From the IMG/VR virus record IMGVR_UViG_2693429677_000015: DNA of 36,705 bases. One strand, written 5' to 3'. Origin of the DNA: a virus (Duplodnaviria; Heunggongvirae; Uroviricota; Caudoviricetes). Below, piece after piece: positions 3,639-6,629 of this stretch; position 1 is the first letter of the stretch, and each line of letters begins with the position of its first letter. A program made the position numbers and the translations under genes. Under the pieces are notes generated by a model. It had not been told where the DNA came from. It worked only from the letters and a program-made list of their open reading frames with translations, and made no database searches.

Positions 3639-5336
3639 TCAGGCGATAAGGTCACCGTATTTTTCGCGCAGGCTCGTAGCCTGTTGGGCGTCTGCGGCAA
3701 GTTCGCTGCTGTTTGTTGGTGCGCCGGTGTTGCTGTGGGTGTGGTTTGCAGTGTGTGTGGCCAGCAACTGAACCAGATCCAGAATATCAATCAACAACGT
3801 CAGCAGATTAAGTCCGGATTTTTCCCGTGAGTCACCGCGACCAATAAATACTGTCGGGGCTGTAAACTCCAGACCACCGTCCGCTCGGCATGTTCTGCGG
3901 CCTCCCACGTTTTCAGTAAGGTCGTGTTCAATCGTGGATGTAGCCCCTTTGAGTTTAGTCAGCAAATCCTGCGCTACCATCTGGATATGCTCACTGGCTG
4001 CGATCGCGTAATGGCCGGTAGTAAGGTGCTCTATTTGTCCTGCCATTAGCTTGCTGGTTCCCAGAACGCTGGTTATATCGTTTGCCTGTACTGTGGTTGT
4101 TCTGGTTGTTGTTGTGCGTTCCTCCTGATCGCTGTTAATGGTTCGCCGGGCTGAATGTTCTCTGATTTGCTGGTCGGTTTCTCTGTGCCAGCTTCCGTCA
4201 GCCGTGACGCGCTGAAACACTTCTGCGCGCTGTTGCTGCAGCTGTTCGCCGGGCTTTACATCAGGCAGGTTATGGCCAGCGGGTAAGATTTGCCTGATAA
4301 CGGGTTTGTCCGGACGTCCTTCAATGTTGGATATTTCCACGATGGTGCCTGCCGGTGGGTAGGCAAAACATCCCGCCTCACTGCCAGCCATGGGGACGGG
4401 GAGCGGTACTGCCGGGTAAACGGGCGTGTCGCTTTTATCGTTGCCGTTCTCATCAAGCAACTGCACATCAACGGCGTAGCGTGGGCGGAAACTGTCGGCC
4501 ACATCGCCCAGGGTGGTGGGCTCCGTTGGCGCAATGACGCGCGCCAGCCGGGTATGTAGCGTACCGCTGGCCAGTTCCGGGAACTGTGTTTCCATTTGTC
4601 TGCGTAATGGTGATTTGGAAACAGGGTTACCCGTGGCGGTAAGGCGCTCCCATGTCAGGGTCATTTTCTCGTTGTTGAGGGCTACACGGGTAATGCGCCC
4701 AGCCGGTAGGTTCACGCCCGGTCGCACAGTTTCCATAAACATGATGTCGATGCTGTTTCCGCCGCTTTGCCCGAGTGTGTACTGTTGCGGAATATCTGGC
4801 ATTGTAATACTGGCAAATCGTGAATCAGCTGCGCTTCCCACAAATACAGAACCGTCCGGCATAGGGTGCCAGACGTAATCGCTGATACTGAATGCTCGCC
4901 CCAGTTGGCTGAGCAGTTGTGCTCCGCTGCCGCTGTGGGTGATGTAGGGAGTTGGTATACTGGCATAATCCGCATCCGGAGTGATAAAAACGATACCGCT
5001 TTGTCGCCCCAGATTATCGAGTACCCCCCGCAACGTCGGGTGTTGCATGGAGCAAGGGAAATCAAAATCCAGCACAGCAGCCGCTTCACGAATAAAAAGG
5101 CGACGTGAGCCATTTTCAGCAGGTTGATCGCGCTCAATGTAGCCGGAGAAATAGCGCCATGCTTCACCGTCACGGCCGAGATCAATTTGTACCATTGCGC
5201 CGGCAAGGCTGTGTTCGGGTGACAGATTGTTAACAGAAATGAAGCCACGACCGGCAGCATTCAGGGTAAGAACAAGGTTTATATCGGCAATTTCCACCCG
5301 TTCGCCATTAATAATACAGCGTTGTATTAATTTCAT
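3639..5336 (-). CDS. Baseplate hub/central spike-like tail protein (gpV/gp5-type OB-fold segment with N-terminal extension; possible gpD-gpV fusion)
   Basis: 565 aa; segment AGSEAGCFAYPPAGTIVEISNIEGRPDKPVIRQILP resembles the gpV/gp5 spike OB-fold signature; last gene of the tail operon at the att-proximal position where P2 has D; start overlaps upstream stop (ATGA). Confidence 0.45.
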   Translation of the reverse strand: MKLIQRCIINGERVEIADINLVLTLNAAGRGFISVNNLSPEHSLAGAMVQIDLGRDGEAWRYFSGYIERDQPAENGSRRLFIREAAAVLDFDFPCSMQHPTLRGVLDNLGRQSGIVFITPDADYASIPTPYITHSGSGAQLLSQLGRAFSISDYVWHPMPDGSVFVGSAADSRFASITMPDIPQQYTLGQSGGNSIDIMFMETVRPGVNLPAGRITRVALNNEKMTLTWERLTATGNPVSKSPLRRQMETQFPELASGTLHTRLARVIAPTEPTTLGDVADSFRPRYAVDVQLLDENGNDKSDTPVYPAVPLPVPMAGSEAGCFAYPPAGTIVEISNIEGRPDKPVIRQILPAGHNLPDVKPGEQLQQQRAEVFQRVTADGSWHRETDQQIREHSARRTINSDQEERTTTTRTTTVQANDITSVLGTSKLMAGQIEHLTTGHYAIAASEHIQMVAQDLLTKLKGATSTIEHDLTENVGGRRTCRADGGLEFTAPTVFIGRGDSREKSGLNLLTLLIDILDLVQLLATHTANHTHSNTGAPTNSSELAADAQQATSLREKYGDLIA

Positions 5337-5908
5337 GTTTTCCCTTCCTTTTTCACGCTCCCGATGCCAATCCAGTCCAGCCCGGAGCCAATACCATCAT
5401 TGATATTTTTCCAGAAAGTTTCCTGGGTATTCATTCCTTTATCCGGCGTCAGCTCACTGCCGTTCTGTGTCTGCTGCTTTGCGATTGTTTTCTGTGAGCC
5501 ACTGCGTGCCGATGCTTTTTCCGGCACGCTTAATTTTTCCCTGAGAGTAAAGGTGACCTGCCAGTGCATTTTCCCCTGTTGTTCCGTGGCATCAATGCCA
5601 CCAGAAAATACCCCCTGTCGCATATTGATTGCCTTCGCGGTAGCGTTGGCAATGCGATACGTTTTTTTAGCTCCGTTACTTTCTGTTGCCTCCGCAAGCT
5701 GAAAAATACGGGTCAGAATAGCTTCATCGTTAAAGTCAATAACCCCCGACACGCGCAGCTCTTTAGCCTTGTTTCCCTGCTGAGCGCTCGTGGTGCTGGT
5801 TGACTGTCCGGACATATCTTTATCCGGTAGTTGCATGGTGGCGCTGACGGTGATGTTGCGCAGCAGAATGGCTTCCCCGTCAAGCGCAAGGACAATCATC
5901 TGGGTCAT
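5333..5908 (-). CDS. Phage tail-associated protein, uncharacterised (occupies the gpU-like position)
   Basis: 191-aa ORF translationally coupled to the downstream hub/spike gene; no motif I can name. Confidence 0.35.
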   Translation of the reverse strand: MTQMIVLALDGEAILLRNITVSATMQLPDKDMSGQSTSTTSAQQGNKAKELRVSGVIDFNDEAILTRIFQLAEATESNGAKKTYRIANATAKAINMRQGVFSGGIDATEQQGKMHWQVTFTLREKLSVPEKASARSGSQKTIAKQQTQNGSELTPDKGMNTQETFWKNINDGIGSGLDWIGIGSVKKEGKT

Positions 5909-6629
5909 GTAGTGCTTCCCTTAGTGATGAGAGATCATCGCCGACGAACAGCATCACAGCTGTAAAAACCCACTCGGGGTGTGGGATGTTTTTTTGTATC
6001 AGCGCTGCGGCCTGGCTAAGGACTCCCTTGTAGCAAAAGCGCCACACCGGGCAAAATTTTTGCCGGAGTGCGGCCTGCTGATCAGCGATTTCCTGTAGAG
6101 CTTTATCTCTCGCATTCGCGAACTGACGCAGCTCTGATGACAATGTTTCCGGTGATGTGGCAGCAGGAGTAGCTGCCTGTGCAATGGTTGCAGCCAGCGA
6201 CATGCTGCGAGTGGTCTGTGTCGACAGCATTATCGGTTCCGGAAGTGATGTTACCGGTCTGGCGGGGATTTGCATTCTGCTGATGGTCAGCGAAAGTTGG
6301 CTGGAGATCATACGGGACATTCTCCCTATTTCTGGCAACGGAAATGCACCTGAAAATTGTCTGGCAAGCGATAAAAACTCAGCAACAGACGGGGCGCAGA
6401 ATAACATCGCCACGACGTCTTTTTGTGTATTTTCTGTCAGATACGGTAAAAGTGCAGACACTGCATTATCCGGACTGAGGTAGCGTCCCGATGGTGTGGT
6501 ATTCCCTGTATTTACTGACCATGGGTGGAAACAAATCATTGAACTGGTGATGTTTATGGGGTGCGGGTGCAGAATTGAGACCGCCCAGTCAGGGCGGTTA
6601 TTTTTATTGTCTTTCAAATGAATATTCAT
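5880..6629 (-). CDS. Hypothetical phage protein (tail operon); start codon uncertain
   Basis: 249-aa ORF; no Shine-Dalgarno before ATG at 6629; N-terminal codons overlap a plus-strand hairpin at ~6580-6600; stop overlaps start of downstream gene. Confidence 0.3.
   Translation of the reverse strand: MNIHLKDNKNNRPDWAVSILHPHPINITSSMICFHPWSVNTGNTTPSGRYLSPDNAVSALLPYLTENTQKDVVAMLFCAPSVAEFLSLARQFSGAFPLPEIGRMSRMISSQLSLTISRMQIPARPVTSLPEPIMLSTQTTRSMSLAATIAQAATPAATSPETLSSELRQFANARDKALQEIADQQAALRQKFCPVWRFCYKGVLSQAAALIQKNIPHPEWVFTAVMLFVGDDLSSLREALHDPDDCPCA

Follow-up and report, generated by a model that had tools for sequence, protein, structure and literature searches.

Most likely a single-chain hub-spike fusion in the tail-tip block of an HP1-like Escherichia coli prophage

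Introduction

What do the last three tail genes of a contractile-tailed prophage contribute to its baseplate, when the genes for a separate hub and a separate spike cannot be recognized around them? This question is raised by the virus record IMGVR_UViG_2693429677_000015 of IMG/VR, a stretch of 36,705 nucleotides (nt) analyzed here in full and referred to as the window, in which three coupled open reading frames (ORFs) at 3639–6629 on the minus strand encode proteins of 249, 191, and 565 amino acids (aa). A preliminary description made from the sequence alone proposed that the 565-aa protein is a VgrG-like fusion of hub and spike and left the other two unassigned. The window carries a P2-related prophage of Escherichia coli that is nearly complete and HP1-like (HP1 subgroup of the Peduoviridae), and the three ORFs, which lie exactly where they had been placed and whose overlaps show the coupling, are homologues of HP1 orf33, orf34, and orf35 (UniProt P51737, P51738, and P51739). 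There is a strong case, well short of certainty, that they form a tail-tip block encoding the inner core of a contractile-tail baseplate.

Both the fusion and the gene order are already known for HP1-type phages and are an ordinary feature of them; the N-terminal part of HP1 orf35 was mapped to gpD and the C-terminal part to gpV in 2023 (PMC10612066, Table S1, footnote d). What is added here is (i) confirmation of both modules in the enterobacterial branch at the level of predicted folds, (ii) the mapping of the hub/spike junction to about residue 235, and (iii) a predicted tube fold for the orf34 family, which is consistent with a tube initiator.

Sequence and Fold of the 565-aa Protein

The 565-aa ORF (3639–5336, minus strand) is a homologue of HP1 orf35, K139 orf39, and phiO18P gp46. 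It matches the family phrog_2258, annotated ‘baseplate protein’, over its full length (E 1e-233; residues 1–565 against profile positions 1–544), and blastp aligns residues 1–564 with HP1 orf35 at 38% identity (E 2.5e-125). The family has more than 1100 homologues, most of them 550–582 aa long, and the closest proteins from cultured phages, 46–48% identical, belong to Salmonella SI7 and SW5, Cronobacter ESSI-2, and Yersinia vB_YenM_324. Annotation is uneven: RefSeq labels both the 565-aa and the 249-aa protein ‘hypothetical’ in E. coli genomes, some homologue records have been named ‘baseplate assembly protein V’ or ‘Gp5/Vgr OB-fold domain protein’ by their sources, and one homologue (P0069) carries a precomputed match to the Pfam family Phage_base_V (PF04717).

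The OB-fold signature noticed earlier midway along the 565-aa protein does exist, but at the sequence level it stays below threshold. PF04717 scores 15.7 bits over residues 310–347 (E 0.02; gathering threshold 23.8), the VgrG model TIGR01646 (vgr_GE) 18.9 bits over residues 314–362 (E 6e-4; cut-off 122), and the VgrG model TIGR03361 16.1 bits (cut-off 186). Sequence and profile searches of the Protein Data Bank (PDB) gave weak matches to VgrG and gp5 only: the family profile reaches VgrG chains at E 0.005–0.05, with Pvc8 also matched in the sequence searches, and profile positions 409–499 align with residues 479–576 of the T4 gp5 β-helix (E ~0.02). Pfam Phage_GPD gave no match even at E 10, and P2 gpD gave E-values above 1 in both tblastn and blastp.

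An AlphaFold2 (AF2) monomer model compared with the PDB by Foldseek points to both folds in one chain. The predicted local distance difference test (pLDDT) is 80–95 over residues 1–240 and intermediate over the OB region, and the last 55 residues are helical and fairly confident. The top Foldseek matches are single-chain hub-spike proteins aligned over ~600 columns (E 1e-17 to 1e-13), including the Algoriphagus extracellular contractile injection system (eCIS; 7aef_q), Bacteroides VgrG (9jg9), Pvc8 of the Photorhabdus virulence cassette (PVC), Afp8 of the antifeeding prophage (AFP), VgrG1 (4mtk), and VgrS, and the model also aligns over its full length to 9mlp, 6j0m, and 6rbk_C. Hub proteins that lack a spike follow at E 1e-12 to 1e-4, among them PhiTE, Mu gp44, MuSo2, P1, E217, the pyocin R2 hub, and T4 gp27. 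By module, the hub scored 20.9 against MuSo2 (3cdd), 19.5 against Mu gp44, 17.6 against the E217 hub, and 16.2 against the pyocin R2 hub, which we take to be the gpD counterpart, with ~220 residues aligned at 2.2–2.9 Å; the spike scored 8.3 against the Mu gp45 puncturing device, 7.8 against the A-1(L) central spike, 7.5 against P1 Gp5, and 7.0 against the R2 pyocin spike. The hub fold, characterized by tandem tube-like β-barrel domains and a pseudo-hexameric trimer, is the one predicted for the 565-aa protein. All these relatives are distant, the best matches being at most 16% identical, and HP1-type baseplates do not appear among the PDB search matches.

Thus, the 565-aa protein is most likely a baseplate hub and a piercing spike fused in a single chain, as the model's full-length match to VgrG-like fusions supports. 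The hub module, with a gp27/gpD/Mu gp44-like fold, would span residues 1 to ~235 (4632–5336, minus strand), and the spike module residues ~241–565 (3642–4616, minus strand), the latter consisting of linker helices, an OB-fold (~285–350), a presumed trimeric β-helix (~390–500), and a C-terminal helical tip.

Several observations weigh against this reading. None of the curated V, D, VgrG, and GpU models reaches its cut-off. The presumed β-helix has the profile matches at E ~0.02 as its sole basis, and in the monomer model residues 350–510 have pLDDT below 50, which is expected when an intertwined trimeric helix is modeled as a monomer. Finally, the predicted C-terminal tip is helical (H511–530 and H543–559), unlike the β-structured apex of gpV.

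One may ask whether only the spike half is genuine, the 565-aa protein being a gpV-type spike whose N-terminal extension is unrelated, with the 249- or the 191-aa protein as the true hub. The lack of any Phage_GPD match or tblastn similarity to P2 gpD speaks for such an arrangement, as does the length of the putative hub module, ~235 aa and much shorter than the 387 aa of gpD. It is contradicted by the fold evidence, which falls on the confidently predicted part of the model, and we regard it as very improbable.

The same fold matches could be taken to place the block outside phages, in type VI secretion, a tailocin, or an extracellular injection system, with the 565-aa protein as a bona fide VgrG: VgrG, Pvc8, and Afp8 are its best fold matches, and TagO/VasI-like genes (1264–2156) lie ~1.5–2.4 kb from the end of its gene. 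This is highly unlikely given the scores of 19 and 16 bits with TIGR01646 and TIGR03361, far below their cut-offs, and the position of the gene at the end of an operon that also encodes P2-family capsid, scaffold, terminase, and portal proteins, next to genes for gpA-type replication and integrase.

The hub-spike fusion also has a natural counterpart in which the two halves are separate. In Pseudoalteromonas ACA1, gp48 (234 aa) aligns to residues 62–229 of the 565-aa protein and gp49 (317 aa) to residues 241–557, so the junction between hub and spike can be fixed at about residue 235; similarly, the spike-only family phrog_4011 matches residues 243–559. The existence of such two-gene relatives, together with decayed chimeras in the databases (for instance, the homologue P0300), might suggest that the single ORF is itself an artefact or a product of decay, with the hub and spike genes of a defective prophage merged through a frameshift, a deletion, or a sequencing error. 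We give this almost no credence. The full-length architecture of 533–582 aa is kept in the cultured phages HP1, HP2, K139, phiO18P, SI7, and ESSI-2 and in more than 1000 proteins of many genera; at least 80% of the segment 2400–6700 of the window, which includes the block, is present in 41 of 5426 complete E. coli genomes; and the window otherwise holds a complete set of head, tail, terminase, replication, and integrase genes.

Near the tip of the fused hub-spike protein, an HxH motif (His532-Thr533-His534; 3735–3743, minus strand) is a candidate metal site in the trimer. Both histidines are invariant across the 60 aligned homologues, and an HTH or HGH motif is also present in HP1, K139, phiO18P, and ACA1. 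By analogy with the iron-binding HxH cluster in the tail tips of Pa193, E217, and pyocin (PMC11456595), the motif may bind metal in the trimer, with a site geometry made uncertain by the helical tip.

The orf34 Homologue as a Putative Tube Initiator

The 191-aa ORF (5333–5908, minus strand) can no longer be called unassigned, since it belongs to the Pfam family HP1_ORF34 (PF25759), a ‘baseplate complex protein’, with 179.8 bits over residues 2–174 (E 5e-53; gathering threshold 27). All 47 aligned homologues match the same family, and blastp aligns the protein with HP1 orf34 at 40% identity over its full length (E 2e-39). Its gene shares an ATGA overlap with the 565-aa gene, with a ribosome-binding site (AGGAAGGGA) ahead of the ATG, and this coupling to the hub-spike gene mirrors the U-D order of P2.

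In the AF2 model, residues 6–125 are folded, with pLDDT above 90 over residues 50–125; the core consists of strands, a long loop, a helix, and more strands, and the C-terminal 65 residues are predicted to be disordered or helical. In Foldseek, chains of baseplate entries match best, ahead of ordinary tube proteins: Bas63 9ndy_A (6e-5), E217 8eon_D and 8eon_A, Pa193 9b45_V and 9b45_S, and Milano, followed by PVC 9qgl_7A, AFP 6rbk_A, the Anabaena contractile injection system, Mu 9ki1_u, and P1 9vzk_2. Since Foldseek returns entry titles rather than protein names, we infer the identities of these chains: from their lengths, 9b45_V (188 aa) would be Pa193 gp39 (ripcord-2) and 9b45_S (170 aa) gp38 (ripcord-1), and from chain label and length, 9qgl_7A and 6rbk_A would be Pvc7 and Afp7. 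Afp7 and Pvc7 carry a LysM domain, whereas the 191-aa protein has none.

Proteins of this kind form a ring between hub and tube in solved baseplates (PMC11456595; bioRxiv 10.64898/2026.09.14.750843). In Pa193, a heterohexameric ring built from gp38 and gp39 shares its axis with the baseplate tube gp37 and is the attachment point of the trimeric hub gp42 (PMC11456595). In P2, six gpU tube initiators sit on the gpD trimer, with gpV beneath and six LysM ‘glue’ proteins, gpX, at the periphery (bioRxiv 10.64898/2026.09.14.750843). Together with the U-D order of P2 and the coupling to the hub-spike gene, the predicted tube fold makes ‘tube initiator’ the best reading of the 191-aa protein, which probably forms the ring between hub and tube in the role of P2 gpU.

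What counts against this assignment is of two kinds. Structurally, the Foldseek E-values are modest (6e-5 to 1e-2), and a tube fold alone cannot separate an initiator from a second tube protein. At the sequence level, Pfam GpU (PF06995) matches none of the 47 family members at E 10, and hhalign of the orf34 family against gpU returned a probability of 0.1%, whether gpU was represented by one sequence or by 11 diverse homologues taken from phage records and aligned. The link to gpU is therefore one of fold and gene position. Along the same lines, sequence and profile searches of the family against PDB chains gave no matches, and the HHpred link to gpU has been called ‘uncertain’ (PMC10612066).

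The orf33 Homologue

The first gene of the block, the 249-aa ORF (5880–6629, minus strand), overlaps the 191-aa gene by 29 nt in a different frame. It is a homologue of HP1 orf33 (blastp, 25% identity over the full length, E 2.5e-18) and matches phrog_31292 (E 3e-74) and phrog_1677 (E 7e-40). A profile search gathered 216 representatives of the family at the 50% cluster level, usually 230–300 aa long. No aligned member has a Pfam match at E 10, no relative was found among PDB sequences, and a widened profile search of the family gave no link to any known family. Profile searches of the 249- and 191-aa proteins against the gpU and gpX families, which the preliminary description had proposed as a check, gave no GpU or LysM match. 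A gpX-like LysM protein was not found elsewhere either, with no tblastn match in the window and no LysM Pfam domain among the late-region ORFs scanned, a scan that excluded the early region (25197–35604).

We tentatively read the 249-aa protein as a low-copy baseplate accessory, which may stand in for the absent LysM ‘glue’ protein gpX. For ACA1, mass spectrometry of virions gave 2 spectra of the homologue gp46 (PMC10612066 supplement, GenBank note), and counts for the ACA1 hub and spike were as low, at 5 and 2 spectra (PMC10612066). Against the role we infer stands the nature of its basis, namely homology, synteny, and 2 spectra for a homologue that HHpred finds 16% identical to HP1 orf33.

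Those 2 spectra, the lack of recognizable fold relatives, and a position after the fibre and fibre-assembly genes would also suit a non-structural role, either in assembly, as a fibre or baseplate chaperone that the mature tail lacks, or as an accessory protein outside the tail. Such a role is possible, if doubtful: orf33 homologues always lie directly upstream of, and coupled to, the orf34 and orf35 homologues in phages of five host groups (Haemophilus, Vibrio, Aeromonas, Pseudoalteromonas, and enterobacteria), and the low counts of ACA1 gp46 match those of the hub and spike. A bolder proposal, which we consider unlikely though worth stating, extends the accessory reading: the orf33-like protein would be a structural baseplate component with a fold unseen in solved contractile systems that could replace gpX, and the HP1-type core, in which hub and spike are also fused and the HxH tip is predicted to be helical, would be a distinct architectural variant of the minimal P2 baseplate.

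Two unusual relatives were seen in this family. P0300 (323 aa) joins an orf33-like N-terminus to an orf35-like C-terminus and looks like a deletion chimera of a decayed prophage. P0307 (527 aa) has a 300-residue N-terminal extension without a recognizable domain ahead of its orf33-like domain.

A Proposed Model for Assembly of the Baseplate Core

We propose an assembly that can be set out in three parts. (i) Core formation: the 565-aa protein, most likely trimeric, would use its N-terminal ~235 residues to form a gp27/gpD-type hub ring that adapts threefold to sixfold symmetry, and the remainder (OB-fold, trimeric β-helix, and HxH tip) would form the membrane-piercing spike, which in P2 is the separate gpV. 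(ii) Growth: six copies of the 191-aa protein would most likely be seated on the hub as the tube initiator, from which a tube of the HP1 Orf24 type and the sheath could polymerize along the tape measure, with W-, J-, and I-like wedge proteins assembling around the hub. (iii) Contraction: shortening of the sheath would force the tube, together with the hub and spike, across the outer membrane. The copy numbers of the 565- and 191-aa proteins in this scheme are putative.

Genomic Context of the Block

The tail genes of the window run, by Pfam assignment, in the order that had been described: sheath, tube, chaperone, and tape measure precede W-J-I-H-tfa, the reverse of P2. All are on the minus strand. 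The genes from sheath to tape measure (13009–18134) all lie upstream of the baseplate genes and comprise the sheath (DUF2586; 16854–18134), the tube (Phage_HP1_Orf24; 16402–16857), the tail chaperone (Phage_TAC_10; 15293–15586), and the tape measure (PhageMin_Tail; 13009–15105). They are followed by a W-like sheath initiator (DUF2590, Pfam E 1e-35; 12669–13019), J (11492–12679), I (10860–11495), H (9163–10863), and tfa (8609–9160). The W-like gene is a homologue of HP1 orf28, which HHpred links to P2 gpW (PMC10612066, Table S1), and PGAP annotates the same 351-nt DUF2590 gene in a related genome. Its ATG at 13019 overlaps the tape-measure stop codon at 13009–13011, which leaves no room for V or any other gene between T and W and bears out the earlier remark that no separate gpV-like gene precedes W. 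Nor do canonical V and D homologues lie elsewhere: a tblastn search of all six frames of the window with P2 V, D, U, and X gave a best E of 0.07, and the same search with P2 proteins did find H, G, and S.

Ahead of the sheath, the minus-strand late genes encode scaffold O, capsid N, small terminase M, gpL, gpR, and gpS. The large terminase and portal are on the plus strand, and the element further includes a gpA-type replication gene and an integrase.

Between the tube and chaperone genes lie a 128-aa ORF with no family match (16002–16388, minus strand) and a Pfam M15 peptidase (Peptidase_M15_4), probably an endolysin (15651–15992, minus strand), so that lysis genes appear to be embedded in the tail operon.

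The block closes the late operon as had been described, but it does not follow tfa directly, as two further minus-strand genes intervene: a second tail-collar fibre gene (285 aa; 7745–8602) and a gene for a 352-aa protein of phrog_8291 (6662–7720). The tail-collar N-domain of the second fibre shares 34% identity with the N-terminal end of the main fibre H. This pair, inserted between tfa and the orf33 homologue, is absent from HP1, K139, and phiO18P, and no inverted repeats marking an invertible fibre segment were found around the duplicated fibre genes.

At the other side, the 565-aa gene is indeed the last tail gene, but it is not the final gene before the prophage end, since a Hok/Gef toxin ORF of 46 aa (2671–2811, minus strand) lies beyond it. 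PGAP annotates the same gene in related E. coli genomes; the prophage probably carries it as an addiction or moron module of the hok/sok type. Beside it, ~830 nt (2812–3638) hold no convincing ORF.

Beyond the prophage, chromosomal flk occupies positions 1–996, and three low-GC genes (0.38–0.42), all on the minus strand at 1264–1860, 1875–2156, and 2161–2538, lie between flk and the prophage. They encode a TagO/VasI-like protein (Pfam VasI, E 1e-15), a 93-aa VasI N-terminal fragment, and a zinc-ribbon membrane protein. Proteins of the TagO/VasI type have a link to type VI secretion. The corresponding prophage end in strain E300010 adjoins serS, and similarity begins near position 2605 of the window, which makes the trio variable cargo or a separate islet. 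The TagO/VasI genes were rejected as type VI context, as they fall outside the segment common to the same prophage end beside serS, and their closeness to a VgrG-like phage gene looks like coincidence.

In the early region, Rfam places a C4 antisense RNA (31437–31524, minus strand; 84 bits) beside the Hfq-binding small RNA isrK (31560–31634, minus strand; 67 bits). The C4/isrK pair is typical of P1/P7-type antirepressor control in several enterobacterial prophages.

Comparison with Known Systems

The block is closest to those of the HP1-type phages. HP1 (orf27–35), K139 (orf35–39), and phiO18P (gp42–46) have the same order and the same three genes after the fibre-assembly gene, with K139 orf37–39 and phiO18P gp44–46 being the equivalents of HP1 orf33–35. 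Thus, what had been described as a ‘non-P2 order’ is the long-known HP1-type order. In HP1, the block likewise closes the late operon, and its last two genes are also coupled by ATGA; relative to HP1, the window inserts the tail-collar fibre and 352-aa genes after tfa and carries the Hok/Gef ORF downstream.

P2 differs in both order and composition. There, V-W-J-I-H-G precede FI-FII-E-T-U-D, an order that is reversed by module in the window, and V belongs to a different operon from D, whereas hub and spike form one polypeptide in the window. The 565-aa protein appears to share folds and roles with P2 gpD and gpV with no detectable sequence similarity; its hub module is ~150 residues shorter than gpD, and its tip is predicted to be helical. 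The 191-aa protein compares in a similar way with the ripcord and initiator proteins (Pa193 gp38/gp39, E217, Pvc7/Afp7, and Mu gp43), with which it would have a tail-tube fold core in common and no sequence similarity was detected.

VgrG (TssI) and Pvc8/Afp8 have the same one-chain order of a gp27-like hub, a gp5-like OB-fold, and a β-helix. Compared with VgrG, the hub module of the 565-aa protein is shorter, so that the OB-fold starts at ~285 instead of ~400. Its neighbours are phage tail, head, terminase, and replication genes rather than the Hcp, TssB/C, TssE–G, and TssJLM genes of a type VI secretion neighbourhood, and unlike in VgrG systems there are no effector or PAAR-related genes beside it. 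The 565-aa protein would work like VgrG, Pvc8, and Afp8 but stands outside the VgrG family, as its scores of 16–19 bits against cut-offs of 122–186 and its phage-tail context argue.

For the window itself, this matters little beyond annotation: the annotation of the 565-aa protein can be changed to baseplate hub/central spike fusion, and that of the 191-aa protein to probable tube initiator. More broadly, the family offers a natural phage example of the VgrG-type hub-spike fusion. In Pseudoalteromonas ACA1 and C5a, also of the HP1 subgroup, gp48 and gp49 are homologous to the two halves and occupy the same position after the orf33 and orf34 homologues, with hub and spike as two overlapping genes (234 and 317 aa) that represent the unfused state. 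Split forms (ACA1, C5a) and fused forms (HP1, K139, and the enterobacterial phages) therefore coexist in one subgroup, which makes it useful for discussing how VgrG-like proteins originated.

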